A stretch of 56,403 nucleotides of DNA from a virus (lineage: Duplodnaviria > Caudoviricetes), in the IMG/VR virus record IMGVR_UViG_3300048584_000026, positions 1-56,403 of that record. One strand, given 5' to 3'. The notes under the pieces were generated by a model. It was not told where the DNA came from, ran no database searches, and saw only the letters and a list, made by a program, of their open reading frames with translations. The translations under genes and the position numbers were made by a program. Positions 8,505 through 44,583 of this stretch are shown here, piece by piece. Every line of letters starts with the position of its first letter. The first letter of the stretch is position 1.

Positions 8505-8505
8505 C

Positions 8506-9779: not shown

Positions 9780-9780
9780 A

Positions 9781-10256: not shown

Positions 10257-10258
10257 AG

Positions 10259-10711: not shown

Positions 10712-10713
10712 GG

Positions 10714-11100
10714 TCAGTCCTTCTTGTCCAGCATATCCGCCAACTGATCGAGGGCCGTGATAGCTTCGGCTCGCTTTGCGCTGTCCGGATTCTTGAGTTG
10801 CTTCACACAGGCTCGGATCATCACAGCCATAGTGGTCCGTTGGGCCTTCTGCAAGGCCATCAGATCGTTATAGCTCTTGGCTACACGCTCAAGGGTCTTT
10901 CTATCAGGTTCGGGGCAAGAGTCGGCTGGTACATCCCGGTCTGCCAGTTCGCGCACTTCATCTGCCGCATATCTTAGGTATCGGCTGACAGCTTCGCACC
11001 GCTGTGCCAAAGCAACTGCGCCTTGACCCCGAAGCGGAGTTGCCTTCTTCGTGTACTCCGTTGCTCGTGTGCGCAAAATATTGATAAGAGCTTCCGTCAT
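10714..11100 (-). CDS. Hypothetical helical protein
   Basis: ATG 1 nt after the upstream stop; lower GC than neighbours. Confidence 0.6.
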   Translation of the reverse strand: MTEALINILRTRATEYTKKATPLRGQGAVALAQRCEAVSRYLRYAADEVRELADRDVPADSCPEPDRKTLERVAKSYNDLMALQKAQRTTMAVMIRACVKQLKNPDSAKRAEAITALDQLADMLDKKD

Positions 11101-11101
11101 G

Positions 11102-11929
11102 TCAGGCTGCCTTCGGTCGGTTGATGTAGGTGAGGGGTTCCCCGTTCTTGTCGTAGGTATGCTCGACCACGGTTGCCTTGCAACGAGTCTTGCTTCCCCT
11201 GACATAGTGACGAGACCCTTCTTCTCCCTGCCGCAGGAAACCTAGCAGCCGGGGCGACGACTTGGTGGCGATCTTGCAGCCGTTCTCGTCGGTGCAGAGC
11301 GTCCAGTGCGACATGATATGCGGGAACTCGCTGATAAGTCGGCTCTGGGTGTGGATCAGAGTCAATTCGAAATCGCGGCGCTCCTTGATCGTGCCAACAT
11401 GGCGAGCAGCGGCCACTCGGGCGCGTTCCTTCTCGTTGCGCTCGATGATCTGGTTCACGACCTCGATCTGCCGGTCAGTCGGCTCCTTGGCTTCCACGAC
11501 GATACGATCCCGGATCGACTGGAGTACTTCGACCTCACCGTGCGCCAGTTCCGCGTCGATCCGGGCGATGAAACCCTCGTTCCCGGAAATGATTTCCGCC
11601 CGCTGGGCGTCACGGCGCTCCTGCTCGATCCGAGCGGCCTCGGCCCGAGCAGCGGCCTTCTTCGCGGTCCGCTTCTCAGCCGCCGCGTCCAGCCGGGCGT
11701 TCTGCTCCGGGGTGTAGAGCTTATGGGTCTCGTTGACCGGATCAATACCGGAGCCGCCGCAGCGATAGCACTTCCAGCCGGTGTTGCTGCCAGCCGGTCC
11801 CCAAGCATCCGATCCGCCTGCGCCGCCGCAACGAACGCACTTCCGCGAGCAGATGTGCAGCGGCTTACCGTTCTTGTCGGCGTGGGTGGCCCGGAGAGCC
11901 TGACCAGATCGGTTGTAGAGGATGACCAT
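11102..11929 (-). CDS. Zn-finger (CxxCxGxG repeat) protein
   Basis: CVRCGGAGG...CYRCGGSG, coiled coil, beta-rich C-terminus; first gene after a TTGACA promoter. Confidence 0.7.
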   Translation of the reverse strand: MVILYNRSGQALRATHADKNGKPLHICSRKCVRCGGAGGSDAWGPAGSNTGWKCYRCGGSGIDPVNETHKLYTPEQNARLDAAAEKRTAKKAAARAEAARIEQERRDAQRAEIISGNEGFIARIDAELAHGEVEVLQSIRDRIVVEAKEPTDRQIEVVNQIIERNEKERARVAAARHVGTIKERRDFELTLIHTQSRLISEFPHIMSHWTLCTDENGCKIATKSSPRLLGFLRQGEEGSRHYVRGSKTRCKATVVEHTYDKNGEPLTYINRPKAA

Positions 11930-11963
11930 GAACTCGACTCACTTGTTCGGCTTCGACGATCTG

Positions 11964-11992
11964 GAGGTACGGATTTTCTGATTCATTGTCAA
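11964..11992 (-). promoter_or_regulatory. Putative sigma70-type promoter
   Basis: Minus strand TTGACA-17 nt-TACCTC. Confidence 0.55.
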
Positions 11993-12014
11993 GTTTTGTT
12001 ATGTGAAGTTCACT

Positions 12015-12346
12015 GGGGCAAGATCAGGGGCAAGATCAGGGGCAAGATCGGATCATGCCCCTCGTTTTCGGCCACTTTGGGGGGAAAATGAATCAGAAAT
12101 CCCTTCCCGCGAGGGGCAAGATCGCCCGTGTTTTGATCTTGCCCCTGATCTTGCCCCTGATCTTGCCCCTGAGAAAATACTGAATTTCCTTACTTATTTC
12201 GAGATACCCCCCTAAAGGGGCAAGATAATCTTAAAAACGAAGCTCTGTATACGAGGAAAAACTTGCCGTGTTAAGTGACGAACACATAACTTTGGTGAAA
12301 TTTTTTCCCACAGCCTGAATAAGGGAAAATCGGTCGATCTTGCCCC
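12015..12346. repeat. Iteron-like GGGGCAAGATC array (about 10 copies, both orientations)
   Basis: Forward at 12015, 12027, 12039, 12113 and 12217 (1 mismatch); reverse at 12051 (1 mismatch), 12135, 12147, 12159 and 12336; adjacent AT-rich tract. Confidence 0.9.
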
Positions 12347-12583
12347 TCGGATGCCTCGTTCATAAAAGTCGGTCAGACTCATTAACAGAAATTCGTTCGA
12401 CCGGGTGCGGCCCTCCAGCACCCGAAAACCGGCATCGCCAAGCTTCGTTTGCACAGATCAGACAGGAACTTGGACCAACTTCGGAAATGATTTCGCGATC
12501 CGGAAATGCCTAGGAGCAGATAACCGGAAATCATTTCCAATAGCGAGGTCATACGCGAAATCGGGAATGTCAGAAGAAAAGCG

Positions 12584-12595
12584 GCTCAGCGCCCC
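12584..12595 (-). other. Probable cos (cohesive end) site GGGGCGCTGAGC
   Basis: 10/12 match to the phage Chi cohesive end GGTGCGCAGAGC (recalled from literature); opening the genome here restores Chi-like gene order; lambda-type terminase and portal present. Confidence 0.55.
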
Positions 12596-12782
12596 CACCC
12601 CCGCTGGCCCGCTCTGCCTATAGTACCTAAAGGGTCTATCGCTGATTCATTATGCCCTAGGCCCCGTTCTGGCGGCCTGTGAGTAATGATTCAGGGCGGC
12701 CCGCTAGGCCCCTAGCTGAATCATTTTCGTGCAATCCTGAGGCCCTGCACAAGGCCCAGCCGCTCGCCCTTGTTGCGGGCAT

Positions 12783-12816
12783 AAGAAAAGGGCCGCCGGG
12801 TTTCCCCAGCGGCCCT
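12783..12816 (-). terminator. Rho-independent terminator closing the 12.8-18.5 kb operon
   Basis: Minus strand AGGGCCGCTGGGGAAACCCGGCGGCCCTTTTCTT. Confidence 0.75.
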
Positions 12817-12838
12817 GTTGCGTCCGATTGTCCGGACC

Positions 12839-12976
12839 TCAGGCGTTCAAGCTATCGCATAGGCGGGCCACCTCAGCGGCGGCCCTATCAGCGGCCACGC
12901 TATCCCCTCGCCTCAGGGCCGCCCGCCTGTCCCTGTCCGCCGCTAGGGCGAGGTCCGCTATATGCTGCGAGTTCAC
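12839..12976 (-). CDS. Small hypothetical protein (45 aa, not in ORF track)
   Basis: GTG overlaps the upstream stop; MNSQHIADLALAADRDRRAALRRGDSVAADRAAAEVARLCDSLNA. Confidence 0.45.
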   Translation of the reverse strand: MNSQHIADLALAADRDRRAALRRGDSVAADRAAAEVARLCDSLNA

Positions 12977-13212
12977 AGGCGGCCCCCTTTATCGCAGGCC
13001 CGGCGGCCCGTGAGGCCCGCCCGTCCGCCGGTTCGCCTGTCCCTGAGGGCGGCCCTGTCCCGCTTATCCCGTTGCCTCAGCCGCAGGGCCTCAGCATAGG
13101 CCGCGATATGCGCGAAAGCGAATCCCCCAAAATAGGCGGCCTCGCCATAGTCGCAACAGGTGGCCGCGTGGCCGCAGGGTTGAATAAAGCGGGCCACGAT
13201 TAGAGACCCCAC
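12973..13212 (-). CDS. Hypothetical protein
   Basis: Fills the operon; Cys-containing; start uncertain. Confidence 0.45.
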   Translation of the reverse strand: MGSLIVARFIQPCGHAATCCDYGEAAYFGGFAFAHIAAYAEALRLRQRDKRDRAALRDRRTGGRAGLTGRRACDKGGRL

Positions 13213-13415
13213 AGGGCGAGCGATTGCCCCACAGACAAGCCTTGCGCCTTGTCCACTTGATAGGCCCCCCAGATCAGCCCAGCCGTTGCGAGGGCCACGG
13301 CTAACAGGATTGCGATTCCCATTCGGTCCGCATTGCGTTTACGGACCTCAGCCGCAGACAGGCGGGCCTTGCGGACATAGCGGCCACGGGGGGCGGGTTG
13401 CGAGTTATGGCGCAT
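13200..13415 (-). CDS. Small membrane protein
   Basis: Basic N-terminus followed by TM helix MGIAILLAVALATAGLIWGAY; ends WGL. Confidence 0.6.
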   Translation of the reverse strand: MRHNSQPAPRGRYVRKARLSAAEVRKRNADRMGIAILLAVALATAGLIWGAYQVDKAQGLSVGQSLALWGL

Positions 13416-13429
13416 TAGATCAGCCCCCC

Positions 13430-13582
13430 TTAGCAACAGGGACGGACAGGGCCGCCCGCGTAAGGGGAAACGATTGCGGGGCGTACCTCGCGCCCGTGGC
13501 GATTGTACAGGGGGCCTGTGTAGGGCGTGAACCGTTCGGCAATGTCCCCCCAGCGGGGCGAGCGGGTAATGGGAAGGCGCAT
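13430..13582 (-). CDS. Small hypothetical protein
   Basis: AAGGAGTC RBS before MRLPITRSPRW. Confidence 0.55.
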   Translation of the reverse strand: MRLPITRSPRWGDIAERFTPYTGPLYNRHGREVRPAIVSPYAGGPVRPCC

Positions 13583-13654
13583 AGATGGACTCCTTGTGTG
13601 GCGGGCCACCGTGGCCCGTAGGGCCATGCTACGGGCCACCCTTTAACAAACGGT

Positions 13655-13685
13655 AAAGGCCGCCGGACTCTCGCCCGGCGGCCTT
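13655..13685 (-). terminator. GC hairpin, possible weak terminator
   Basis: AAGGCCGCCGG...CCGGCGGCCTTT on the minus strand. Confidence 0.5.
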
Positions 13686-13713
13686 GCCTTGCCCAGTGTT
13701 GCCCCGAACGGGT

Positions 13714-14364
13714 TTAGAGGCCCGGACCTCGCGCGAGGTACTGCACCTTAGCCCCGTGAATCCGGTCCGTCCCGTGGTCCCTATCGCAGACACGGAACTT
13801 GTCGCGCGGGACCTGTACGCCCGCCCTCAGGGCGTCCAAAAGGGACTCTAGGCTGTAGACCTTGCGCCCGCGTCCGTCCGCAAGGCCCGTGAACTGCCAC
13901 GCCCCGGACGGGACGCGCGGCCCATGGGCGTTTTCAGGGCGTGAGATTCCGCCGCAGGCGTGAACCGCAAACCACTCGCCACGCGGCTCGCGTGTTTCTG
14001 TGTACCTGAAAACGACGGGCGAGCCGTTCGCCCATAGGTCCCGCATATAGACCCGGACGACTGGCGAGGTATCGGAATCCCAGTCGTCCGAGTCCCCCAG
14101 TTCGTCCCAGTCGAACGAGGCGAGGGCGTCCGCAAGGGCCTCGCGTCCCCCCGTGTCCGCCCAGTTCGTTATGGCGTCCCGCGCGGCCTGATAGTCGAAA
14201 CCGTCAGGGCGTCCGCAGGATTGCAGGTCCGCCGCAAGTTCCCGCAACACAGCGGCCACTGAGTCCGGGCCTGACGGGTACGCAATCAGGATAAATTCAT
14301 CCTGAGACCGCAGCCGCTCCATTCCGCTCGCAGCCGTGCAAAGGGTTTCCAATCTGTAGCGCAT
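13714..14364 (-). CDS. Hypothetical protein
   Basis: AAGGAGTC RBS, 216 aa; ends GPGL. Confidence 0.7.
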   Translation of the reverse strand: MRYRLETLCTAASGMERLRSQDEFILIAYPSGPDSVAAVLRELAADLQSCGRPDGFDYQAARDAITNWADTGGREALADALASFDWDELGDSDDWDSDTSPVVRVYMRDLWANGSPVVFRYTETREPRGEWFAVHACGGISRPENAHGPRVPSGAWQFTGLADGRGRKVYSLESLLDALRAGVQVPRDKFRVCDRDHGTDRIHGAKVQYLARGPGL

Positions 14365-14386
14365 TACTTGACTCCTTGTCTGTGAT

Positions 14387-14632
14387 TTAGGCCGCCCAGC
14401 TAGGGCGGGTTCCGTTGAATAGATAGGCCCTGCAATCGTCTGCCATTGCGAGGGCCGCCGGTCCGTCGTCCGCCTCAGGACAATCTGTGTCTACCAGATC
14501 ACCACGCGAGTCGAACTCAAACCAGTAAGCGCGGGACGCCCTGAGGCTTGAACACGGCCACCCCCGGTTAAAGCTCGCAACGCCCGCCGCAGAAACCCGG
14601 ACCTTGTTTCCGGAAATGATTTCTACGCCCAT
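14387..14632 (-). CDS. Hypothetical protein
   Basis: Coupled (TAATG); WFEFDSRGDLVD; ends WAA. Confidence 0.7.
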   Translation of the reverse strand: MGVEIISGNKVRVSAAGVASFNRGWPCSSLRASRAYWFEFDSRGDLVDTDCPEADDGPAALAMADDCRAYLFNGTRPSWAA

Positions 14633-14862
14633 TAGGCGGCCCCCCTTCCATCAATCGTGAGGCGCGCGCGGCGGACGCAATAGGCGTGAAAGTACCGCAG
14701 GCGCGAGCCGTTTGCGTTTTTGGGCCTGCGGTACCGGCGGGCGTCCGCCTGTACTCGCAGGGCGTCAACCTTGGACGAATTGAGGGCGTGGAAATCCGTT
14801 TCCAGATCACAGCCCGCCGCTGTCAGGATTGCGCGCGCGTCCCATGGGTCAAGGCGGGCCAT
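14632..14862 (-). CDS. Hypothetical protein
   Basis: DFHAL...YRRPKNANGSRLRYF; ends GAA. Confidence 0.7.
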   Translation of the reverse strand: MARLDPWDARAILTAAGCDLETDFHALNSSKVDALRVQADARRYRRPKNANGSRLRYFHAYCVRRARLTIDGRGAA

Positions 14863-14863
14863 G

Positions 14864-15550
14864 TCAGCGGCCCCCCTTGTTTAGCAGGGCCTCGGGGGCA
14901 TCTATCCCGTAGTGGCCCGCCGCAACGCCCGCCGGGTCCCGTTGCGCCTGTCTGGCAATCCACGACTCAGCCTCAGGGATGCTGGCAAGGCGGGCGAGAA
15001 TAGCGGGGCGGGCCGCGTCCGGGTGGCAGTAGCTAACGGCCACCTTGCCCCGTCCCGCAGCCTTTAACCGGCGGACTCGGCATATCTGCGAGTCGCCCAC
15101 ATTGCGCCCGGACCACGTGGCCCCGTCCGGGCCTGTGAACTGCACAAAATGCACTCGCCCGCCCCAGTTATGGCGGCCCGTCCAATGCACGGACACAGGG
15201 AAAGACAGGCCGCCGGGCCAATCCGTGACTCGCATAGGCTCGCCCGCCTTAGGTTGCAGCCCGAAACACGGAATCCCTGTCAGGTACAACACAGCGTCCC
15301 CATGGGCCAACATGGCCGCCCGTTCCCTGAGGCTCGCGCAATCGTAACACGAAAACGCGGCGGACTCGCCCTCGCCCGTCCGGGCGTACCCGGTACCGCC
15401 ACCCAGCTTGAACGGCTTCACCTGTCCGCAGTCTGCGCAACGGAACCCGGCGGGCATATACTCAGGCAAGAAACGGAACGCGCGGGCGGACTTGCACGGG
15501 TCAAGGGCGCAAGCCGCGTCAAGTTCGGCATAGGTTTCAAATACTCGCAT
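14864..15550 (-). CDS. Hypothetical Zn-binding protein
   Basis: CADC and CYDC pairs; AGGAGTCGAA RBS. Confidence 0.7.
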   Translation of the reverse strand: MRVFETYAELDAACALDPCKSARAFRFLPEYMPAGFRCADCGQVKPFKLGGGTGYARTGEGESAAFSCYDCASLRERAAMLAHGDAVLYLTGIPCFGLQPKAGEPMRVTDWPGGLSFPVSVHWTGRHNWGGRVHFVQFTGPDGATWSGRNVGDSQICRVRRLKAAGRGKVAVSYCHPDAARPAILARLASIPEAESWIARQAQRDPAGVAAGHYGIDAPEALLNKGGR

Positions 15551-15749
15551 TTTTCGACTCCTTGGAAACGGTTTCCGGGCGGGCCTCGCGCGTTGCGGCG
15601 GCCCAGCCGTCTAAAAGGCCCTTTGCGTACCCGCTCGCCCATAGCAGGGCGAGGGCGGGCAACATAAAGGCGAGAAAGTACCGGCGGGCGTACCGTCTAC
15701 AGGCGGCCCAGTTAGCGGCGGATTCCTCGGGCGCGAGGGGCCTCAGCAT
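15537..15749 (-). CDS. Small membrane protein
   Basis: TM segment YFLAFMLPALALLWASGY; coupled. Confidence 0.55.
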   Translation of the reverse strand: MLRPLAPEESAANWAACRRYARRYFLAFMLPALALLWASGYAKGLLDGWAAATREARPETVSKESKNASI

Positions 15750-17020
15750 TAAGCGGACTCGGCTGAGGTATCACAGGGCAGGGCGGCCACCCCCAGCGAT
15801 TGCGCGAGGGCGTGAATCTCGGGCCAAGCGAACCTATGGCAACCCGCGACAAAATCGCCCGAAGCCTCAACCCGGTTGACGTTGAACTGACCGACTCGGA
15901 TTGTCCGCAGGCCCGCCGGTTCCCATGCCTCGCCCCGTTCCCTGACACAAACAAGGAACTGATAGACCCGGATAGCCTCGCGCAACGGGACCCGCGCGCC
16001 CTGAGAGGTCTCAAGCGTTCCGCCGCTGATCTCGCCCGCCTTGTTCCGCTTGACGCCCGTTGCCCTGATATAGGCCGCCCCGTCAGTCGAACGGGGCAAG
16101 CTATGGGTTGCCACCTTGAGTCCCTCGCGCCATCCCGCGAGTTTTTCCTCAGCGTTTGCCCAGCGCAAGGCTGCGAGCCGTTCCGCGTTCGCCTTACGCT
16201 GTTGCTTTGCAGCCTCGCGCCTCGCCCGTTCCTTAGGCGTCAGGCGGGCGAGGGCGCGGGCCTTGCGGGCCTCACGTTCCGCGATAATCGCGGCGGCCTC
16301 AGCGTCTACGGCTGCGAACGAGTCCGGAAAATCCGCCGGGATATGCAAGGGCGCGAAAAATTCCGCGTAGTCCTGCACCATTGCCCAGCGTTCCCGCAAC
16401 ACAGCGGCCACCTGTTGCGCCTCAGTAAGGCGGGCGGGTTCGCTATCCTCGCCCGGCGTCCACGTATGGCCCGGAACCCATGGGCAATAAATGTCCCCCC
16501 GCTTGTTCCGGAACAAGTCCGCCCGGTCCCGGTAGACCTGAATCAGGTGAGTCAGGTTGCCTGTGTGGTCTACGGCTGAGGGCGTAGGGACCTCGCCCCT
16601 ATCGTCAAGGCCACAGCGGGCCTGCCAATAGTCCGCCCCGGCGGAATAGCCCCCGATATGCGGGACCTCAAAAACGCGGCCACGAGTCCACGGCTCGCCT
16701 TGTTCGCTCGCCCCGACAAGGTGGCGAACCGCGCCAGTAGCGCCTGCAATGTGGCCGCCCGTTGCGGGTCCCCAGTCATTAGGAACGACTAGCAAGCAAA
16801 GGGCCTCGCGCCCATGAATCGGTTCAAGCCGTGCAACGGGGGTTTGGTAGCTGTAGAAGATACGCCCGACAAAACGAACGCGCGGGCAATCTGCGGACGC
16901 GGCCCCGGAACTGAATCCGAAGTAGGAACCTTGACCGGGCGTAGGGGAACGCCCGAACGGCTGCGACTGGGTGGCCCATGCATGGGCAACTTGCGAATGA
17001 GTGCTAAAGACAGTTTTCAT
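15749..17020 (-). CDS. Large hypothetical early protein
   Basis: AGGAGTCGAA RBS before MKTVFSTH; coiled coil; C-terminal LETSQGARVP...VAGCHRF. Confidence 0.75.
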   Translation of the reverse strand: MKTVFSTHSQVAHAWATQSQPFGRSPTPGQGSYFGFSSGAASADCPRVRFVGRIFYSYQTPVARLEPIHGREALCLLVVPNDWGPATGGHIAGATGAVRHLVGASEQGEPWTRGRVFEVPHIGGYSAGADYWQARCGLDDRGEVPTPSAVDHTGNLTHLIQVYRDRADLFRNKRGDIYCPWVPGHTWTPGEDSEPARLTEAQQVAAVLRERWAMVQDYAEFFAPLHIPADFPDSFAAVDAEAAAIIAEREARKARALARLTPKERARREAAKQQRKANAERLAALRWANAEEKLAGWREGLKVATHSLPRSTDGAAYIRATGVKRNKAGEISGGTLETSQGARVPLREAIRVYQFLVCVRERGEAWEPAGLRTIRVGQFNVNRVEASGDFVAGCHRFAWPEIHALAQSLGVAALPCDTSAESA

Positions 17021-17042
17021 GGGTTCGACTCCTTGTTTGATC

Positions 17043-17213
17043 TCAGGCGGCCCGGCGGGCGGCCGCGCGGTAGTTATCGGCTTGTGCATCATAGCGGGCG
17101 GCCCGCTCGCCCCATGCCTCAGCCTCGGGCGAGTAACCGGCGGCCTGATAGGCGGCCCGCGCGGCGAGTTCGGAATAGTGGTCCGCTTTCGCGCTGTAGT
17201 TCGTTGCTTTCAC
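17043..17213 (-). CDS. Small Ala-rich protein (56 aa, not in ORF track)
   Basis: AAGGAGTC RBS, GTG start; MKATNYSAKADHYSELAARAAYQAAGYSPEAEAWGERAARYDAQADNYRAAARRAA. Confidence 0.6.
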   Translation of the reverse strand: MKATNYSAKADHYSELAARAAYQAAGYSPEAEAWGERAARYDAQADNYRAAARRAA

Positions 17214-17230
17214 AGTCTGGACTCCTTGTC

Positions 17231-17464
17231 TCAGTTAGAGGGGGCAAAGTATCGCGCGAGGTCCCGCGCGAAAGTACGGGATTCGATTGCAGCTAGTGCA
17301 AAATCCGAATGGGCAAACGTGAGGCGGGCAAAGGACATATGGTCGCATTGCGAGTCGCAATCCCAGCCGCGCGCGGCCATGGCCGAATCCAGTTCCTCAG
17401 GGTCAAAAGAGACCTCAGGAACCGCAAAGACAGCGGACAGGCCCAAAAGGTCCCCCGCGTTCAC
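17231..17464 (-). CDS. Hypothetical protein
   Basis: GTGA-coupled to the upstream gene. Confidence 0.6.
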   Translation of the reverse strand: MNAGDLLGLSAVFAVPEVSFDPEELDSAMAARGWDCDSQCDHMSFARLTFAHSDFALAAIESRTFARDLARYFAPSN

Positions 17465-18510
17465 GCCCGGACCTCACGGGCGAGGGCCGCGCGTCCCTCA
17501 GCGGTGGAATCGTAAATATCGACTCCATATCGGGCGGCCATGGCGCGGGCCGCGCGTTCCGCGTCCGGGTACCGGGGGGCGTATTGGATAGCGTCAACGG
17601 GCGAGCCGTCCGCAGTCTCAGCCGCAACACGATAACAGGGCGAGCCGTCCGCCTCAGCGTCCGCCACTGTGATACGCTCCACGCGGGCGAGCGGGTCCGC
17701 CTCGCAAGGGTCAAGGGCCGCCAGAATGGATTGCACCACGTCCCGCGCGCCACCTGTCAGGCCGCCGCGCGTTTCTCGCGCAATCTGCGCAGCCCTTGCG
17801 ATACGTGAGGCGGGCGAGGGTTCCGCGCCTGCGGTACCGAGGGCCGCGTAAGCCCCTTTGACGGCTGAATCCATTTCATCCCGCGCGCTATCGCCCGCCG
17901 GGCCTATGCAATGCGCAGTCTCATTAGCCACGATTGCGAGGGTTAGCAGGGCCTCGCGCAACCCGTCCGCCTCAGCCTTGAGAGGCGCAAGGGCGTTGCG
18001 TTCGTCCGCAAGGGCGGCCATCCGCCGCAGTTCCTCGCGCGCCATCCGGCGGCCCTCGCCCGTGCCATGCATCAAGGCAATCTCAATAACGCCCGCCGCA
18101 GTTGCCCAGTTCGATTCAATGGAAACGGTTCCCGCAGTCTCAGGCCCGGCGGGTACGGGTTCCGGTTCCGCGCCCTGCGATTCCACGAACGCGGCAAGGT
18201 CCCGCGAAAATTGCCGCCTAATCGCGGCCCGCCACATAACCCGCTGATTTTCAGGCAACGCGCGGCCATGCAACCCGGAACGGGTCCGCAACTCCACGTC
18301 AACGCTGACCCGCTCGCCCGTTGCCGCGTTGCGGTCAAAAGTCCGAACGACTTCCCCCCAGTACTCGCGCCCGCTGTGTTCAAAGCGGAACGCCTGCGAA
18401 TGAGTGCGGCCCCGTTCGCGCCAGTAACCCGAGGCGCGAACGACTGGCCCGAAGTAGACAGTCAAGGACTCGCTGAGGGTCCGCGCGGTTTCATCCCGGT
18501 GAATTTTCAT
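17461..18510 (-). CDS. Hypothetical multi-domain early protein
   Basis: GGAG RBS before MKIHRDET; first gene of the block. Confidence 0.7.
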   Translation of the reverse strand: MKIHRDETARTLSESLTVYFGPVVRASGYWRERGRTHSQAFRFEHSGREYWGEVVRTFDRNAATGERVSVDVELRTRSGLHGRALPENQRVMWRAAIRRQFSRDLAAFVESQGAEPEPVPAGPETAGTVSIESNWATAAGVIEIALMHGTGEGRRMAREELRRMAALADERNALAPLKAEADGLREALLTLAIVANETAHCIGPAGDSARDEMDSAVKGAYAALGTAGAEPSPASRIARAAQIARETRGGLTGGARDVVQSILAALDPCEADPLARVERITVADAEADGSPCYRVAAETADGSPVDAIQYAPRYPDAERAARAMAARYGVDIYDSTAEGRAALAREVRA

Positions 18511-18604
18511 AGTCCAAACTCCACGAATCAAGCGGCGGCCCTTTGCCGCACCCTGTCCGCTGTACCTGACAGAACTTAACAGAGTCTAGCTTTATCACAG
18601 ACAG

Positions 18605-19015
18605 GGCGGACCCCAGCCGCTCGCCCGGCGGACCCCAGCCGCTCGCCCGGTCCGCCGGGATGACGAATCGCGCGGGATTCCATGCCCCCGCGCGCCTAGG
18701 TGACGCGCGCGCCTATACGTACGCGGGCGCGCTCGCCCGTGTATACGCGCGCGGGCGCGCTCGCCCGTGTATACGCGCGCGGGCGCGCACACGGGGAACC
18801 GGGAGACCCCCCTGTAGTGGTGTGACAGCACCCCCTCTGTAGTGGTGTGACAGATCGTTCGACCAACCGGCCATCGCGCCGCCGGATCACCACGCTCGCC
18901 CCGTGGCCGATCCTGCCGCGCTCGGTCTCGAAATGATTTCCGCTGCTCGACCTGATCGAACAACCGTAACACCCCCTCTGTAGCGGAGTCAGGGGACCCC
19001 CTCTGTAGCGGAGTC
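18605..19015. repeat. Cluster of tandem and inverted repeats
   Basis: 22-bp unit x2 (18605-18648); 28-bp unit x2 plus a partial copy (18722-18788); CTGTAGTGGTGTGACAG at 18812 and 18837; ACCCCCTCTGTAGCGGAGTC at 18971 and 18996. Confidence 0.9.
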
Positions 19016-19027
19016 GGGGCAGCAGGA

Positions 19028-19056
19028 TTGACAGTCTAGGATGTTTCGTGCATCTA
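19028..19056 (+). promoter_or_regulatory. Putative promoter of the accessory arm
   Basis: TTGACA-17 nt-CATCTA. Confidence 0.5.
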
Positions 19057-19085
19057 AGCAGCCCGAATCAAGGTCGAGGAGTTTC

Positions 19086-19370
19086 ATGCAAGAAGTTTAC
19101 GAGATCGAGCAGCGGGAGAACCGTCAGGCTCAGATAGAGCATATGGACATCGGTGACACGGTGTCCATATCCCGGCGGATCGAGATGATGCACGGGTTTG
19201 CGGAAGGCGCTATTGCTGAACACAACCGCCAGCTTCGCGGCATCGCCGATCAGCAGACGCACCGGGCGCGCAGGCGCTTCAAGGAGCGCAAGTTCAAGGT
19301 CGAGAATGGTTCGTTTATGACGCGGGAAGGGGCGCTGGTAATCACCGCCGCTATCACGCGGGTCGAGTAA
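19086..19370 (+). CDS. Hypothetical protein
   Basis: GAGGAG RBS before MQEVYEIE. Confidence 0.7.
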   Translation: MQEVYEIEQRENRQAQIEHMDIGDTVSISRRIEMMHGFAEGAIAEHNRQLRGIADQQTHRARRRFKERKFKVENGSFMTREGALVITAAITRVE

Positions 19371-19391
19371 CACCGAAGGAGTCGAGATAAG

Positions 19392-19721
19392 ATGGTCGAT
19401 AGGTTCGAAGGATACAAGACGAAGAACGGCAAGCTGTTCTTGTCAGAAGAAGCAGCGATCCGGGAGGAAGTGCTGGACGATCTCTGTGAGATCATGCCTG
19501 AGTTGGTTTTGATCCGGCCAAAGCTGGACAGCAACCTCCGCGCTCTGGCAACCGCCATGGGTCCCATGCTGGACCTCGTAAGGGTCCCATCTGAGGGCCA
19601 TATGCCGTGTTGTGTAAACACCCCGCGCGGTCAGGATAACCACACCAATTGCGCCGCGCACCCGGAACACCAGACGGACGCTGTTGTCGATCTGGCTGAC
19701 AGGCTCGCCGGTCGTGCCTAG
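19392..19721 (+). CDS. Hypothetical protein
   Basis: AGGAGTCGA RBS; YKTKNGKLFLSEEAA motif. Confidence 0.7.
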   Translation: MVDRFEGYKTKNGKLFLSEEAAIREEVLDDLCEIMPELVLIRPKLDSNLRALATAMGPMLDLVRVPSEGHMPCCVNTPRGQDNHTNCAAHPEHQTDAVVDLADRLAGRA

Positions 19722-19935
19722 GGTCCGGTCAATCACTATCGGTATGGCGCGGACTTACCAGCATCCGCACATCGCGTACGAGAACTTCCGGATCGAGGGT
19801 CAAGTGACCGTCGATCTGGAGGACGACGAGACGCCAGCCGAAGCCGCTGAGAAATCATTTCCGATTCTGCGCGAGCAGATGATCGCCACCTACAAGCAGT
19901 TCAAGCCGAAGGATGGCACAGGAGGTCGAGACTGA
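19714..19935 (+). CDS. Hypothetical protein
   Basis: Coupled; YENFRIEGQVTVDLEDDE. Confidence 0.6.
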   Translation: MPRVRSITIGMARTYQHPHIAYENFRIEGQVTVDLEDDETPAEAAEKSFPILREQMIATYKQFKPKDGTGGRD

Positions 19936-20240
19936 TGGGAAACACCGTATGGCAACGTCGGCGCAAGGCCGCCGAGATCGCTGGGCGCGAGGCTGCTGAC
20001 GGCGGGCCTGACCGTAGCGAGGAGTTCAAGGCTCTGGGTCTGGATGAATCCTACCACAAGGGCAGGCGTGAACGCGAAAGCGAAATGCAGGCGGCTCAGA
20101 CATACGAGAGCCACCCGCTCCGCCAGATCAGCCACGAGGCGAGCGATCTCTACAACCGAACCGAGAACCCCGAGGTTCGCGAACTGTCCGAGCTTATCGA
20201 GCGGATGGCAGACTATCTGCTGGAAAAGGAAGAATCCTGA
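19935..20240 (+). CDS. Hypothetical protein
   Basis: GGAGG RBS, TGATG coupling. Confidence 0.65.
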   Translation: MGNTVWQRRRKAAEIAGREAADGGPDRSEEFKALGLDESYHKGRRERESEMQAAQTYESHPLRQISHEASDLYNRTENPEVRELSELIERMADYLLEKEES

Positions 20241-20482
20241 TGCCCAAGAACGCTGAACCCGAGATCAAGCAGCGCCGCATGGCGATGATCGGCAAGGTCC
20301 TCGCTATTCAGGTTGAGCCGGGGACCAAGATTTTCCACCCCCTGACAGAGAAGCTGCTCGGGATCGTGGCAGATCGCCAGCCGGTCATCAATCACGACGA
20401 CAACGCGGTCTACCTGTCCACCGACGACTGGAACGCAGCGCAGGCCGCGCTCCCGGCAGCCCCGAAGCCAGTCAAGCACTGA
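20240..20482 (+). CDS. Hypothetical protein
   Basis: TGATG coupling. Confidence 0.65.
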   Translation: MPKNAEPEIKQRRMAMIGKVLAIQVEPGTKIFHPLTEKLLGIVADRQPVINHDDNAVYLSTDDWNAAQAALPAAPKPVKH

Positions 20483-20763
20483 TGCAGCGGGACCAGATCG
20501 AAGCCCGTGTCCGGGAGATACTGGGTCACTACCGAGTGAACCAGAAGTTCATCCGGGGGGCTGGGAAAGCCAACTACGCCTATGCGGTGTACGCGGGGAA
20601 GAACCTCGGGCGCACCACACCGAACCCCGACGTGAAACAGGTCAGCGAGGACCTGACATCGGGCGAAGCCAAAGCCCTCGCCAAGGAACTCACCGTGGCC
20701 GATCTGGTCACTTTCATCGAGAGCATCAAGGAGTCGAACCAAGGTGCGCCAACCGAAGGATGA
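20482..20763 (+). CDS. Hypothetical protein
   Basis: TGATG coupling. Confidence 0.65.
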   Translation: MQRDQIEARVREILGHYRVNQKFIRGAGKANYAYAVYAGKNLGRTTPNPDVKQVSEDLTSGEAKALAKELTVADLVTFIESIKESNQGAPTEG

Positions 20764-21157
20764 CACAATTCTGCTTGGCTACGATGACAAAGGCCGAGAA
20801 CGGATTCTCGGGGCTGACGGCTACGTGCATCTTAAAGTCGGCTCAGATCATCCGATGGCACACAAAAACGGATGGGCGCGAGAGCACCGGGTCATGATGT
20901 CCGAGCGTCTGGGCCGAGTCCTCAAGCCTTCGGAAGTCGTTCACCACAAAAACGACGAGCGCACAGACAACAGGATTGGCAATTTCGAGCTAAAGGGAGC
21001 CGGGGTTCATACCGGCGAACATAAGCATCGCAAGGGGACTGGCAAACCCACTTGCGGAAAAGGACACCCGTGGACGATTTACCCTTCGGGTCGCCGCCGT
21101 TGCCGAGTTTGCGAAAATGCAGCAGATAGGAGTCGATATCATGTCAACAAAAAGTAA
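20744..21157 (+). CDS. HNH homing-type endonuclease
   Basis: EHRVMMSERLGR...VVHHKNDERTDNRIGN; C-terminal CGKGH...CRVC; lower GC. Confidence 0.85.
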   Translation: MRQPKDDTILLGYDDKGRERILGADGYVHLKVGSDHPMAHKNGWAREHRVMMSERLGRVLKPSEVVHHKNDERTDNRIGNFELKGAGVHTGEHKHRKGTGKPTCGKGHPWTIYPSGRRRCRVCENAADRSRYHVNKK

Positions 21158-22209: not shown

Positions 22210-22264
22210 GATGCCCGGTGATGTCGAGTCGCCGGGCATTTTGCCACCAAGGAGTCGAAGCCCT

Positions 22265-27515: not shown

Positions 27516-28757
27516 ATGACTACCACCATCAACCTCCCCGCCGACAAGTTCGACAACACCATGACGTTCGTGCGGCCTGAAAACCCGGCCACGCGCGTTG
27601 CGCTGGACAAGCTGGCTGTGTTGCCCGGCTTCAATACCCGCGTCAAGGACGCGGACTACAACGAGCGTGTCACCGGCATCGCCGAGAGCATCGTCGCCAA
27701 CGGCTTCTTCGATGACAAGCCGTTCGCTGTGACCATGCTGCCCGGCGATGATACGGTCTACATCTACGACGGTGAACACCGTTTCGACGCGGCCAAGGCG
27801 GCCCTGCTCGACGGTGCCGAGTTCCCGGACGGCCTGCCGGTCGCATGGGCGAAGGACGGCGCGACGGTCCGCGACCTGACGATCCACCTTGCCCACGGTA
27901 ACGCAGGCGAGCGGCTGAACATGGTCGAACTTGCTGCGGTCGTGCGCCGTATGCAGGGCCTCGGCATGGAGAAGGGCGAGATCGCCGAAGCTCTGGGCCG
28001 TACGACCCGCCACATCGACAACCTGTTCGTCCTCGCCGAAGCGAACCAGACCGTGAAGCGCGCCGTCGCCAGTGGCAAGATCGCTGGGGCCGAGGCCGTC
28101 AAGCTTGTCCGCAAGCACGGCAGCAAGGATGCGGCGACCGAGATCACGGCCCGGATCAAGAAGGCCGAGGAGCAGGGTAAGGCGAAGGCCACGCCCAAGA
28201 CGGCTATCAGCGCGCCGACCGGCCCAAAGATGAAGAAGGTCAACCTGACCATGACCTTCGGCACTGGCGACGTTATGGCCGATCTGTTGAAGAACATGGC
28301 GAAGGCGATTCGCGCCGAAGTCCAGATCGGCGAAGGCGACAAGCTGGCCGAGGACGGCAAGATCGAGGTCGTGATCCACGTCGTCGATCAGCAGGCCGAG
28401 GCTGCCAAGATCGCGGCAGAGAAGGCCAAGGCCGAAGCTGCGGCGAAGCGTGAAGCCGAGAAGGCGGAAGCTGCGAAGGCCAAGGCCGAAGCCAAGGCCA
28501 AGCGTGAAGCCGAGAAGGCGGAGGCAGCCAAGAAGAAGGAAGCCGAAGCCAAGGCCAAGCGCGCCGCCGAAGCCAAGCTCCTCAAGGAAGCCGCGAAGGG
28601 CAAGCCCGCCAGCGGGGCCAAGACCCCTGCGAAGGACAAGCCCGCGAAGGCCCCTGCGAAGCCCAAGGCTGCGTCGAAGGCTTCGGAGGCCCCAGCAGCC
28701 GCAGAATCGCCGGAAAAGGCCCCCAGCACGGGCGACGACGGCATGGGCGGCCTCTAA
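27516..28757 (+). CDS. ParB-like protein (ParB/Srx domain, HTH, Ala/Lys-rich tail)
   Basis: GFNTR, YIYDGEHR (GxxR box), HTH EIAEALGRTTRHI, AK/EA repeats; ends DDGMGGL. Confidence 0.8.
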   Translation: MTTTINLPADKFDNTMTFVRPENPATRVALDKLAVLPGFNTRVKDADYNERVTGIAESIVANGFFDDKPFAVTMLPGDDTVYIYDGEHRFDAAKAALLDGAEFPDGLPVAWAKDGATVRDLTIHLAHGNAGERLNMVELAAVVRRMQGLGMEKGEIAEALGRTTRHIDNLFVLAEANQTVKRAVASGKIAGAEAVKLVRKHGSKDAATEITARIKKAEEQGKAKATPKTAISAPTGPKMKKVNLTMTFGTGDVMADLLKNMAKAIRAEVQIGEGDKLAEDGKIEVVIHVVDQQAEAAKIAAEKAKAEAAAKREAEKAEAAKAKAEAKAKREAEKAEAAKKKEAEAKAKRAAEAKLLKEAAKGKPASGAKTPAKDKPAKAPAKPKAASKASEAPAAAESPEKAPSTGDDGMGGL

Positions 28758-29234: not shown

Positions 29235-29370
29235 GATGCCGCATCGCCCCTACCAGACAATGCAGACCAGCCCGAAGCCCCGCATGGCCGAGGAAGCCCC
29301 TATCCAGCGCGTTGTGGGTGCCGGGATCGAGCGCCACATGGGGGCGACCCGTATCCCTCGCCCACGCGCC

Positions 29371-29399
29371 TTGAAACCCCCGGTCGGTTAGACTATACC
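29371..29399 (+). promoter_or_regulatory. Putative promoter for a small RNA
   Basis: TTGAAA-17 nt-TATACC with no plus-strand gene downstream. Confidence 0.5.
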
Positions 29400-29404
29400 T
29401 CGAA

Positions 29405-29503
29405 TCGCTTCTCTGGGAGCGACAGCGCCGGGTTCTCGACCGCCCGCCGCCTGCATCGGAAGGCCCTGCGTGTCGGCTTCGACTCCTCGCGCAGGGCCTT
29501 CTT
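29405..29503 (+). ncRNA. Candidate anti-RBS small RNA
   Basis: 5' hairpin (29405-29422); 12-bp terminal stem (29459-29470 with 29490-29501) enclosing GGCTTCGACTCCT. Confidence 0.45.
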
Positions 29504-29506
29504 GAT

Positions 29507-29791
29507 TCAGTCCTTCGGGCAATCCAGATCAGGCATCCCCGTTTCGTCGAAGAACTTGCAGAGCCGGACGCCAGCCGATCTCAGCCGGTCGCCCCAGCTT
29601 TCGACGCGGGCGTTGTAGGTTGCCTCGGCCACGGGGTCGGTCGCGATCTCGTCGCCGGGGACCGGCTTGGCCTCAGTCACCGCCCTCAGGTCGGCAGGCG
29701 GGGGGTACCCGCCCGATCCGGCGCAGGCGCTCGCAAGCAAGAGCGTGGGCAGCAGGGCTGATCTCGCCCCCCGGTGCAGCTTCGATGACAT
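29507..29791 (-). CDS. o-spanin (Rz1-like lipoprotein)
   Basis: Signal peptide with lipobox LLASAC, Pro-rich, overlaps the i-spanin gene. Confidence 0.7.
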   Translation of the reverse strand: MSSKLHRGARSALLPTLLLASACAGSGGYPPPADLRAVTEAKPVPGDEIATDPVAEATYNARVESWGDRLRSAGVRLCKFFDETGMPDLDCPKD

Positions 29792-34344: not shown

Positions 34345-36678
34345 TTATCCGCCCCAGTTCTCGCCCCAGCCATAGCCCCAGCCAGAGACAAGAACAACCT
34401 TGAAACGATAGTGGAAGTAGGACGCAACGCCGTCCCGGAGAGATTCGAACTCGATCCAGACGCTCACAGGGCTGCCGTCGGCAGACTGGAGAGCCGTGGT
34501 GTAGGTCCATGTCGCGCCGGAACCCACATCGTCCTCGCGCAGCAGCGTAACGCCGTCTATGTCGTACACGCGCACGTTGTAGGTGGTCCCAGCTTCCGGG
34601 CCGATGCTGCCCTCCCCGTGGCCGACAAGAACGTCTGCCTGTAGCTTGCGATCCCGGTGAGTCCAAGTCAGCACCGGCTCGGGATATTCTACATCACCGA
34701 GCGAGTAGATCGACACACCGTTGACCTTGAGATCGCCCGGCGGATACGGACGGAAAAGGCGCTGGTCTACCTGAACCGAAACTTCGACTGCGTTTTCCGG
34801 GTCCAGCAGATCGGTAGACGTGCGGGTCAAGGCTTTGCCGTACACCGTCTCTCCGTCTTGGTACTCGATCCCGTCCGATCCGATCTCGTCGTCAATCAGC
34901 CAGATAGTCGATTCTGCGGCGTGGGCTGCCGGGATCGTGTCAGCGACCCCCCGCTTGATCGTGGCTACACGGGTCTCGGAGTCGAAGGTCGTGAACTCCA
35001 TTTGCTCGTCGTTCACGAGAACCGCCATCCCGGCTTCAAACTCGGTCAGGAAGTCCCTCAGGTTTGCCTCGGCCACGGTGAGTTCATCGTCGAGCGGGCC
35101 GATGCTGGTGAGCAGCGTCAGCCAGTTCGTAAAGCCGACCGTCGGGTTTTCGTTGTCCGGATACTCCTCGCTGGTGAGGCTCGTCAGCACGTCGAAGCCT
35201 TGCGCCTGTACACCGGCAGGGGCTTTCGCCAAGATCGCGACGTAGCTGGTCGCCGCGTCTACGGCGTCTTGGTCAGCGGTAGAACTGAGCCGGTAGAAGT
35301 CGCGCCAGTTCATCTCGTAGAGAAGGGTCTCAGGGGACGCGGCGGCTACGAAATTAGGCGGAGTCCAGATGTTCGACGGCGGGGCGATGAACTCGGTCTG
35401 CGGCATACCGAAAACATCCTGAACCGCTTTCACGCTGATCCGGCTGTCCTCCAGCGTACCGTCCCGGACCTCGCCCGCGCGCAGGATCATGTTGCTTATG
35501 CCCTTCGCGGGGTCTGATACACGGAAAGGCATACCCGGCGCGATCCGCCAGCCGCGACGGTCGAGCAGCACAGTCATCTTGCGCAGAGGCAACTGCACCT
35601 TGAGTTCGCGCAGAGCTACCCGCGCGCACAGGTTCCGCGTGGGAAGCCCCCGGAACTCGACCGTGTTGGAAATGATTTCGCCTTGCGACTGGATAGCCGC
35701 GAGGTTGTGGACCCGGACCATAATATCTTCTTTGGTCGTCGGATCGAATCCCTTGACGACGATCTCGTTGAAGCTGGTCTCCTCTGTCCCAGCGTCGTCG
35801 TCAATGAGATCGAGCAGCCCGGTTTCCGGCGTGAACAACGGTAAGTCGTTGACATCGTAATCCTCCCGGATCAGGCGAAGCGTCAGCTTCCCGGTCTGGC
35901 GGTCCACGTACTGCACAGCCCCGATGTGGTTAATCACCATGGGGATGAAGTCGTTGATACTCTCCTGCCGGAACCATGGGATGCAGAGACCCAAGCCTTC
36001 CTCGCAAAGCGTGTTGGCAGCCTGAACGAAGCTATTCTCGTCGATGAACTCGACCGGGATGCCGCGCCCCCACTCGGGGTTCGTATTGACCTCGTACAGG
36101 ATGTGCGCCGGGTTCATGGCGCTGATGAACCCGCCGTTCTCGCTCTGGATAAGGATGCGCGCCTTGGCCGGATACCAAGGGTCGTCGTTGTACCAGCCTG
36201 CGTCCCAGCGACGGACTCGGAAGCTCCACTCTTTCGGGTATGGGTTCATGGCGGCCACCATGCCGTCAAACCATAGCGTCACGACGCCCCGGAAATTCGG
36301 TACGTCGCCGCCAAGCTGGCTCGCAATCGCGGGCAGGGTCCGGAGAGTTCTCAGGGAGATGCCGGTAAGCCCGCCCCCGAAGCCTACAGAGACGCCGGTA
36401 GCTGCGCTATACTGCAAAGGCCCTTGGAGTTCTTGGTCAGCGGCTCCGTTGTAGCAGTAAAGCCCGCCGTCGATCCCGCCTTCTTTCTTCTCTCCTCCGA
36501 ACAGTTCAGGCTTCCGGATAGAAACCAGCGACCCGGATTCTTTGAGAGGGATCACGGAGTCGTACGCCGTCAGGTCGCCGACCCGAATCTCGGCGATCTC
36601 GTTAATCGGTCCACGACCCAAACCCATGTGGATCGAGAAGAAATACCGGAAACCGATAGTTTGCTTCTTAGCACCCAT
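34345..36678 (-). CDS. Central tail / host-specificity protein
   Basis: MGAKKQTIGFRY, LFGGEKKEGG, MNPAHILYE, RGVADT, WTHRDR, GWGYGWGENWG. Confidence 0.85.
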   Translation of the reverse strand: MGAKKQTIGFRYFFSIHMGLGRGPINEIAEIRVGDLTAYDSVIPLKESGSLVSIRKPELFGGEKKEGGIDGGLYCYNGAADQELQGPLQYSAATGVSVGFGGGLTGISLRTLRTLPAIASQLGGDVPNFRGVVTLWFDGMVAAMNPYPKEWSFRVRRWDAGWYNDDPWYPAKARILIQSENGGFISAMNPAHILYEVNTNPEWGRGIPVEFIDENSFVQAANTLCEEGLGLCIPWFRQESINDFIPMVINHIGAVQYVDRQTGKLTLRLIREDYDVNDLPLFTPETGLLDLIDDDAGTEETSFNEIVVKGFDPTTKEDIMVRVHNLAAIQSQGEIISNTVEFRGLPTRNLCARVALRELKVQLPLRKMTVLLDRRGWRIAPGMPFRVSDPAKGISNMILRAGEVRDGTLEDSRISVKAVQDVFGMPQTEFIAPPSNIWTPPNFVAAASPETLLYEMNWRDFYRLSSTADQDAVDAATSYVAILAKAPAGVQAQGFDVLTSLTSEEYPDNENPTVGFTNWLTLLTSIGPLDDELTVAEANLRDFLTEFEAGMAVLVNDEQMEFTTFDSETRVATIKRGVADTIPAAHAAESTIWLIDDEIGSDGIEYQDGETVYGKALTRTSTDLLDPENAVEVSVQVDQRLFRPYPPGDLKVNGVSIYSLGDVEYPEPVLTWTHRDRKLQADVLVGHGEGSIGPEAGTTYNVRVYDIDGVTLLREDDVGSGATWTYTTALQSADGSPVSVWIEFESLRDGVASYFHYRFKVVLVSGWGYGWGENWGG

Positions 36679-44560: not shown

Positions 44561-44583
44561 ATCGACTCCTGTTGGTAACACGG

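Follow-up and report, generated by a model that had tools for sequence, protein, structure and literature searches.

The virus record IMGVR_UViG_3300048584_000026 (56,403 bp; CheckV, 97%) was analyzed over its whole length, which is called the window below. At positions 29403–29510 of the plus strand a small RNA is predicted, and the loop of its terminal hairpin, CGGCUUCGACUCCU, is complementary to a word, AGGAGTCGA, that is found at the ribosome-binding sites (RBSs) of eight phage genes. This 9-mer, called the barcode, is an extension of the Shine–Dalgarno (SD) sequence. From the comparison of related phages, which form a group of marine type, we consider it probable, though well short of certain, that the element is an anti-SD regulatory RNA that pairs with an extended RBS private to these phages. 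The initial annotation of this DNA had proposed a single small RNA (sRNA) acting through a shared RBS barcode. The structured plus-strand RNA and the co-occurrence of loop and word were supported, and the second seed placed in the same RNA was not.

Complementarity between the Loop and Eight Translation Starts

The barcode was found nine times in the window, compared with a mean of 0.60 (largest value, 3) in 100 dinucleotide shuffles. Eight of the copies lie 1–6 nt upstream of an ATG or GTG, at the genes that start at 15550, 17020, 19392, 20744, 21141, 22265, 44560, and 55661, and the remaining copy comes from reading the hairpin loop on the minus strand (29479–29487). The initial annotation had judged by eye that the 9-mer is confined to translation starts and this loop, and the exhaustive search of the window gave the same answer. 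The match lengths that it reported were all verified (13/13 at 22250–22262, 10/10 at three sites, and 9/9 at four), and shorter versions, AAGGAGTC, are present before genes 13582, 14364, and 17213. The complementarity of the loop to several translation initiation regions exceeds chance, with eight RBS sites in the window. These sites are listed below, together with their fate in orthologs from related IMG/VR records (G001, G002, and others).

15554–15562, minus strand: barcoded RBS AGGAGTCGA(A) of a 228-residue protein of unknown function, start 15550; kept in the G002 ortholog
17025–17033, minus strand: barcoded RBS of a 423-residue protein (phrog_7247, unknown function), start 17020; kept in 4/4 orthologs, flanks differ
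19377–19385, plus strand: barcoded RBS of a 109-residue protein, start 19392; kept in the G001 ortholog
20729–20737, plus strand: barcoded RBS of an HNH endonuclease, GTG start 20744
21128–21136, plus strand: barcoded RBS of a 341-residue protein, start 21141; kept in 4/4 orthologs, flanks unrelated
22250–22262, plus strand: barcoded RBS with the 13-nt match AGGAGTCGAAGCC, of a 148-residue protein, start 22265; 13-mer kept in the G001 ortholog, 9-mer in those of G002 and G003
44562–44570, minus strand: barcoded RBS of a pre-tape-measure/tail assembly chaperone, start 44560; kept in 4/4 orthologs
55665–55673, minus strand: barcoded RBS of a 79-residue protein, start 55661; kept in the G001 ortholog

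No family could be assigned to six of the barcoded products; the other two are the HNH endonuclease and the pre-tape-measure tail chaperone. Six of the genes lie around the divergent control region (13–23 kb); the remaining two are the tail chaperone gene and the small gene at 55.6 kb.

Three further observations concern the word itself. The HNH endonuclease gene (20744–21157) looks inserted between a barcoded RBS and the gene for the 341-residue protein. The upstream flank, tcgagagcatcaAGGAGTCGA, directly precedes the orthologous 339-residue gene in G001, and the 341-residue gene of the window has a second barcode with a new flank; the insertion appears to have duplicated the barcode or to have carried its own. 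A near-barcode with one additional T, AAGGAGTTCGAAGG, is found at the large gene that starts at 54883 (52685–54883). The coding strand of the tail gene at 34345–36678 reads CCTTCGACTCCG at 34978–34988, which is a 10-nt copy of the anti-barcode core.

Structure and Conservation of the Predicted RNA

The plus strand of positions 29392–29515 was found to fold into three hairpins with a free energy of –57.8 kcal/mol (z = –4.23), and none of 200 shuffles folded as well. The minus strand of the same region gave z = –2.0. The parts of the element are listed below.

29403–29510, plus strand: predicted small RNA of ~105–110 nt with three hairpins and putative ends, from the fold, RNAalifold, covariation, and covariance model R1
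29405–29422, plus strand: hairpin 1 (UCGCUUC/GGAGCGA, CU-rich loop), from the fold and RNAalifold
29425–29450, plus strand: hairpin 2; 4/8 pairs changed on both sides
29458–29503, plus strand: terminal (putative terminator) hairpin, then UUCUUGAUU; 9/18 pairs changed on both sides, 96.3% of cells paired
29474–29487, plus strand: invariant 14-nt anti-barcode loop CGGCUUCGACUCCU, with complement AGGAGUCGAAGCCG; identical in 7/7 homologs
29370–29398, plus strand: promoter-like CTTGAA (29370–29375), 17-nt spacer, and CTATAC (29393–29398), from the sequence

The terminal stem of ~14 bp encloses the loop, which reads CGGCTTCGACTCCT in DNA letters. The stem is followed on the plus strand by UUCUUGAUU, and the UUCUU tail is kept in five of the seven loci. 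Opening of the loop was calculated to cost 2.8 kcal/mol. The loop is an unpaired, sequence-conserved seed.

Protein-anchored and pattern searches located the element in six other IMG/VR records, G001–G005 and the more diverged G159 (locus L274); within IMG/VR, these six are the only records besides the window that hold it. The contig of another member of the same clade, G160, ends just before the element. Covariance model R1 matches the six records with E values from 1e-9 to 1e-25. The mean column identity of the six-locus alignment is 81%, the blocks CGGCTTCGACTCCT and GGTTCTCGACCGCC are invariant, and the same three hairpins were predicted by RNAalifold. When the six loci were aligned with MAFFT, 92.6% of the cells were paired, compared with 83.9% in shuffles (0/500 as high) and 48–57% in slide controls, and nine pairs were changed on both sides. 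The model-fitted alignment that includes L274 as the seventh homolog, and that leans toward structure, has 94.0% of the cells paired, compared with 79.4% in shuffles and 45–55% in slide controls, and 13 of its 34 pairs are changed on both sides. The secondary structure is conserved and is backed by this covariation, a check that the initial annotation had named. The 14-nt loop is invariant in all seven homologs, and half of the pairs of its stem (9/18) are changed on both sides. The hairpin 2 block, GGTTCTCGACCGCC (29431–29444), is invariant in six of the seven, and L274 retains UCUCGAC.

The strand can be read from the same alignments. Each sequence has five or six G·U pairs on the plus strand that become A·C on the other strand, as do two conserved U·G pairs of hairpin 1, and 27–33 of the 33–34 pairs form on the plus strand compared with 22–28 on the minus strand. 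The tail behind the stem reads UUCUU on the plus strand; its minus-strand equivalent is not U-rich. The plus strand is indicated because of the G·U pairs, the U-rich tail found on this strand only, and the promoter-like element present in 7/7 loci. Together with the covariation, these features support a structured plus-strand RNA under selection.

The initial annotation had called a promoter, TTGAAA-17-TATACC. Its letters are present (TTGAAA, 29371–29376; TATACC, 29394–29399), but an E. coli-type sigma-70 consensus scan called no promoter at the element, where the –10 hexamer lacks the final T. The pattern CTTGA(A/G)-N17-CTA(T/G)A was found in all seven homologous loci, in L274 over a different open reading frame (ORF) end. 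The Sinorhizobium sigma-70 consensus is CTTGAC-N17-CTATAT. No further copies of the pattern are present in the window, so that the promoter receives no support by analogy with other promoters of the phage. The stop codon (29389–29391) of a 51-residue ORF falls within the spacer. The C-terminal eight residues of this ORF (29236–29391), R(A/V)LKPP(V/I)(G/A), persist even in locus L009, whose remaining protein differs, and the kept end may reflect a nucleotide constraint of the –35 element rather than protein function.

Matches outside the clade were not obtained. The GenBank phage collection gave no match to the element, and scans of metagenome and genome collections with a loose pattern, in which homologs may be missed, gave the strict two-block pattern in none of the matches listed. 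Fifteen more distant ParB-related phage loci (244 kb) gave no match to the RNA model at E ≤ 0.1. The GTDB family of a Sphingomonadaceae metagenome-assembled genome was selected as the bacterial comparison since the two Erythrobacter phages described below infect this genus; the covariance model had 0 matches at E ≤ 0.001 in 151 genomes of this family, a search that had no positive control and shows little. Rfam gave 0 matches at the gathering threshold for the whole window (alpha-r14, AbcR, C4, and all other families), and the best subthreshold scores at 29340–29540 were 13–18 bits against cutoffs of 37–100, from unrelated families; nothing above noise was seen at E ≤ 10, and beyond noise no family came even to E = 0.6. 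From the two DNA runs whose word shares were small, one contig covers only 29657–29700, outside the element. Two other identities were considered and rejected. ARAGORN found 0 tRNA or tmRNA genes in the window, and an att site does not fit because the stems around the TTCGA-containing loop vary between phages, unlike an att core copied from a host tRNA.

Distribution of the Barcode

The barcode was counted in each of the related records. There are seven copies in G001, 10 in G002, six in G003, three in G005, and one in G004, where G003, G005, and G004 are fragments of 14.9–24.6 kb, and 12 and seven copies in G159 and G160, respectively. The reversed-pattern control gave 0 in every relative. 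Over the six records that were analyzed in full, 36 sites were counted: six are loops, and each of the other 30 precedes a start codon and an ORF. The 9-mer is kept in four families of four orthologs (the 341-residue protein, the 148-residue protein, the tail chaperone, and the 423-residue phrog_7247 protein) while the 12 nt upstream are unrelated. The barcode appears to be under selection because orthologous genes keep the 9-mer even though these 12 nt differ. The counts support the co-occurrence of the invariant loop and the RBS word in eight related records besides the window, among them G160 with its contig cut before the RNA locus.

In 41 genomes of the bacterial family, the 9-mer was found 1–24 times per 2.1–6.9 Mb and the reversed control 3–30 times. 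This density is ~2 per Mb, compared with ~140 per Mb in the phage, and the lack of enrichment in the one bacterial family tested supports a word that is private to these phages. The bacterial genome G022 has clusters of this 9-mer, which were considered as a barcoded prophage and turned out to be ordinary coding-sequence occurrences. The 15 distant ParB-related loci have 12 GGAGTCGA sites, six of which adjoin starts.

The tail of the 16S rRNA is GGAUCACCUCCUUUCU in three of three genomes of the same family, and the ideal SD is therefore AAGGAGGUGA. The barcode, AAGGAG-UC-GA, is this ideal SD, AAGGAG-GU-GA, changed at two positions (UC) only, and ribosomes can still pair with 6+2 of its positions. 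The statement in the initial annotation that the TCGA extension is not explained by 16S anti-SD pairing is correct for UC and too broad for GA, which can still pair with the 16S tail. Mimicry of the 16S rRNA was also considered and was rejected, since the internal-helix word UCGACUCC and GGAGUC are both absent from the three 16S genes.

An Anti-Barcode Hairpin in Erythrobacter Phages

The Erythrobacter phages vB_EliS-R22L and vB_EliS-R16L (R22L and R16L below) are distant relatives of the window, with ~68% DNA identity across the GH19 lysin gene and the same gene order. No homolog of the RNA was found in either phage; the best match of model R1 had E = 5.8 in a search that covered all of R22L and positions 8433–21058 of R16L. 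The word GGAGTCGA is present at no fewer than seven RBSs of the leftward early operon in these phages. In R22L, a hairpin with the arms GCCGCCUAGCG and CGCUUAGGCGGC starts six nucleotides past the last stop codon of this barcoded operon, and in both phages its loop, read in the operon sense, is AAUUCGACUCC, which is the same anti-barcode. A second GC hairpin and UUUGCUAUG lie downstream of the anti-barcode hairpin in R22L. R16L keeps the module after another last gene, and one pair of the stem is changed from G·U to A-U. Relatives of the R22L hairpin amount to one weak protein relative, which ends at the contig end. The comparison supports an independent, nonhomologous second instance of the anti-barcode loop.

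One site in each lineage matches beyond the common core. Site 22250 of the window matches 13 bases of the window loop, and an RBS of R22L (record 3713, GGAGTCGAATT) matches all 11 bases of the R22L loop. These lineage-specific flanks (GCC vs UU) are the only hint of loop–target covariation, and a weak one; our own estimate of the chance for both flank matches together is ~0.01.

On the minus strand of R22L at 250–290 (locus L266), near the left end, and likewise near the left end of R16L, the sequence aacTTCCGACTCCCttt resembles the anti-barcode plus one C.

Proposed Function

The duplexes between the loop and the barcoded RBSs were computed to have free energies of –14.2 to –24.4 kcal/mol. 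Opening of the mRNA costs 2.7–6.7 kcal/mol, and the net energy after opening both partners is –5.5 to –15.0 kcal/mol. The most favorable case is site 22250 (duplex, –24.4; net, –15.0 kcal/mol). The best duplexes of the 16S tail at the same sites have energies of –8.0 to –11.2 kcal/mol.

We propose that 29403–29510, at the 3′ end of the rightward gene block (19.1–29.4 kb), encodes a regulatory RNA read from the plus strand. Its source would be a promoter of its own within the last small ORF, release from read-through transcripts, or the two together. The last of the three hairpins would serve as the terminator, and its loop, CGGCUUCGACUCCU, is held constant while the stem drifts. The loop would pair over 9–13 nt with AGGAGUCGA(A)(GCC), the phage-private SD extension on at least eight phage genes, and would occlude the RBS, possibly with subsequent cleavage of the duplex. 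As the RNA accumulates, the barcoded gene set would be turned down; since the duplex would lie over the SD, repression is to be expected. The transcription and termini of the RNA, its action in trans, its repressive effect, and its timing are all inferred here from the DNA. The position of the RNA would fit a feedback loop or a timer: it lies at the 3′ end of a block in which the genes nearest the promoter (19392, 20744, 21141, and 22265) carry the barcode, and in R22L the hairpin closes the same operon in which the barcoded genes lie.

A broader reading, which we offer tentatively and think somewhat more likely to be wrong than right, is a private translational address system. A deviation of two bases from the SD would tag genes while leaving them usable by the ribosome, and one RNA loop, carried on two unrelated scaffolds, would read the tag. 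The loop would read the tagged sites specifically and leave host mRNAs untouched. The readers would be the promoter-bearing, three-hairpin sRNA in the clade of the window and a hairpin in the 3′ untranslated region in R22L and R16L. The code would then be older than either reader, or the reader would have evolved twice.

Several results weigh against a regulatory RNA that acts through the barcode. The cores of the loop and the barcode never vary, and there is no true loop–target covariation. Beyond position 10 the barcode consensus is AAC and not AAG, and only 2 of the 19 sites with A at position 10 continue with the G predicted from the loop; because the consensus continues with a mismatch to the loop, something besides the loop would also shape the barcode. 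The net energies at the 9-mer sites are modest, –5.5 to –7.9 kcal/mol. When the loop plus stem was run in RNAduplex against all start regions of this GC-rich genome, the results overlapped the coding-sequence controls and the targets were not separated. The barcoded targets would be early genes from their position only, and two of them are in the structural block. The anti-barcode hairpin of R22L, for which there is no separate promoter, may work solely as a piece of an mRNA. For the element itself, the missing sigma-70 call has been given above, and the –35 overlaps the conserved C-terminal ...LKPP(V/I)(G/A) of the small ORF in five loci (the contig of L011 begins just before), so that coding constraint may explain part of the –35 conservation. 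No terminator was called at the element by a scan with a loop limit of 8 nt, which is shorter than the loop. Hairpin 1 has zero changes on both sides and therefore no compensatory changes. Loop 2 is invariant yet has no detectable target class. The initial annotation had suggested that a second segment, TCTCGACC, pairs with the RBS at 19921; an 8-nt match to GGAGGTCGAGA does exist at 19924, but the pairing has no statistical support, and words complementary to loop 2 (8–11 nt) are spread through coding sequence in the window and are not concentrated at starts.

Alternative Explanations

A protein could read the barcode, either a RegB-like endoribonuclease or a RegA-like translational repressor, with the RNA irrelevant or acting as a shielding antagonist. 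T4 provides the precedent, in that strong RegB sites of early genes share the extended SD GGAGRAYARAA according to PMC3014915. The AAC continuation of the barcode, unmatched by the loop, also favors a protein, and the six barcoded genes of eight without a family assignment could include one. This reading does not account for two unrelated hairpins that each present, in an invariant loop, the exact complement of the word, and no RegB-like or RegA-like family was found among the eight target proteins and ~12 neighbors that were scanned, a part of the proteome. We regard it as unlikely. Slightly less credit is given to a hairpin that is merely a bidirectional terminator, its loop being kept for another purpose (e.g., a protein-binding site) and its complementarity to the RBSs being a coincidence. 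The hairpin does lie exactly between a plus-strand block that ends at 29391 and a minus-strand block that ends at 29507, its stem forms on the minus strand too, and an unrelated hairpin occupies the syntenic junction of R22L. A terminator, however, requires neither an invariant 14-nt loop nor two conserved upstream hairpins with plus-strand G·U pairs and a promoter-like element. By our own arithmetic, a 14-nt loop would contain the reverse complement of a given 9-mer with a probability of ~6/4^9, and the same coincidence would have recurred on a different scaffold in R22L and R16L.

The minus strand could instead be the functional one, with the SD mimic AGGAGUCGAAGCCG at the 3′ end of the late/lysis transcript serving as a decoy for 30S subunits or as a stabilizer of the mRNA 3′ end. 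On that strand the loop is oriented like the barcoded RBSs, 20 nt past the stop codon at 29507, and the hairpin still folds. On the minus strand, however, five or six pairs per sequence are lost from the first two hairpins and the outer part of the terminator stem, the tail is not U-rich, and there is no start codon within 20 nt after the loop. In R22L and R16L the hairpin is downstream of a minus-strand operon and is the anti-barcode in that sense, with no annotated gene to drive transcription of the opposite strand. This alternative is judged to be improbable. A signal at the level of DNA, with the RNA fold incidental, has the smallest chance in our estimate, and we think it very improbable. 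It could be a CcrM GANTC site (GAGTC), as the initial annotation had allowed, a TCGA methylation or restriction site, or the site of a DNA-binding protein. GAGTC and its complement GACTC are both GANTC sites, and R22L encodes, by annotation, a class I S-adenosylmethionine-dependent methyltransferase. All 30 of the nonloop sites in the six records nevertheless have one orientation and lie 1–6 nt before a start, neither of which is needed by a double-stranded site. The full 9-mer is conserved although GANTC tolerates any middle base, and no enrichment was found in the genomes searched from the bacterial family.

Relation to Known Systems

The alpha-r14/NfeR1 sRNAs are the closest in kind to the element, followed by the c4 RNA of phage P1. 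As described in PMC10746234, these alpha-proteobacterial sRNAs (and AbcR1/2) have three hairpins and an ultraconserved, unpaired anti-SD motif on stems that differ in sequence, and alpha-r14/NfeR1 sRNAs silence several mRNAs by occlusion of the RBS. Three hairpins, a conserved anti-SD loop, and variable stems are thus shared with the element. On the same account, NfeR1 carries the generic CCUCCUCCC three times and addresses ordinary host SDs, whereas the element has a single loop, CGGCUUCGACUCCU, that would read the private UCGA extension (PMC10746234). The element is also encoded by a phage and has no homology to alpha-r14/NfeR1, as judged from the lack of an Rfam match.

In the c4 RNA of phages P1 and P7, complementary stretches, thought to be looped, pair near an RBS elsewhere in the phage and block translation, as given in PMC12197685 and PMC8546580. 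There is one target region for c4, in its own immunity operon, whereas at least eight dispersed genes share the target word of the element. The c4 RNA is reportedly processed from the same operon (work attributed to Citron and Schuster in 1992). Rfam holds a C4 family, and the element has no sequence or structure homology to c4, since the Rfam scans gave no match. In RNAIII of S. aureus, C-rich hairpin-loop seeds, including that of the terminator hairpin, pair with the SD of several mRNAs. RNAIII differs from the element in being a host regulator with generic UCCC seeds of 3–4 nt plus extensions and no private SD code. The phage antisense RNAs known to us (P1 c4, P22 sar, and lambda OOP) each act on one neighboring target.

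Recently described phage sRNAs act mostly on host genes, according to a review (PMC12197685). T4 is similar: a class of its early genes bears an extended SD, GGAGRAYARAA, and is inactivated by one phage factor, RegB (PMC3014915). The reader in T4 is a protein aided by ribosomal protein S1 (same source), whereas the candidate reader here is an RNA loop. No prior description of such a system was found in the open-access literature searched. What is new here is a phage-private SD extension common to dispersed phage genes, with a putative dedicated loop reader on two unrelated scaffolds. If the proposal is correct, control of a phage's own regulon by an sRNA via a shared private RBS extension would be new as a regulatory layout, and it would illustrate how viral messages can be addressed free of cross-talk to host mRNAs. 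On the broader reading given above, the two scaffolds together would form an RNA-based timer for a whole class of genes, the RNA counterpart of T4 RegB. The orthogonal RBS/anti-RBS pair that the proposal offers is directly testable, and with Erythrobacter sp. JL475 as the culture host of R22L and R16L, the idea is open to work at the bench.

Gene Layout and Other Features

A crude gene map of the window is given below. The RNA element sits where the plus-strand block and the long minus-strand block converge.

8.6–18.5 kb, minus strand: minus-strand block
18.5–19.1 kb: repeat-rich control region
19.1–29.4 kb, plus strand: plus-strand block
56.3 kb down to 29.5 kb, minus strand: long minus-strand block (lysis, tail, head, terminase)

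The control region at 18600–19030, between the divergent gene blocks, is made of several direct repeats. Each of the following occurs twice: ggaccccagccgctcgcccgg; a unit of ~27 nt that holds gtgtatacgcgcgcgggcgcg; ccccctctgtagtggtgtgacag; and ccccctctgtagcggagtc. The ccccctctgtagcggagtc pair is immediately upstream of a TTGACA hexamer at 19029. These repeats are likely to be operators or an origin.

The palindrome GAAATNATTTC was found in 19 copies in the window, compared with 0.05 expected, at both intergenic and intragenic positions (e.g., 983, 4764, 7191, 11586, 12484, 12527, 14613, 18930, 19851, 22911, and 23584), and some of the copies adjoin barcoded RBSs. The palindrome may be a dispersed binding site for a DNA-binding protein of the phage, and our guess for the binder would be the ParB-HTH protein encoded at 27516–28757, which shares only 33% identity with the counterpart in R22L. 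G001 and G002 each have ~20 copies of the palindrome, and R22L has ~19 copies of GAAGTTACTTC instead.

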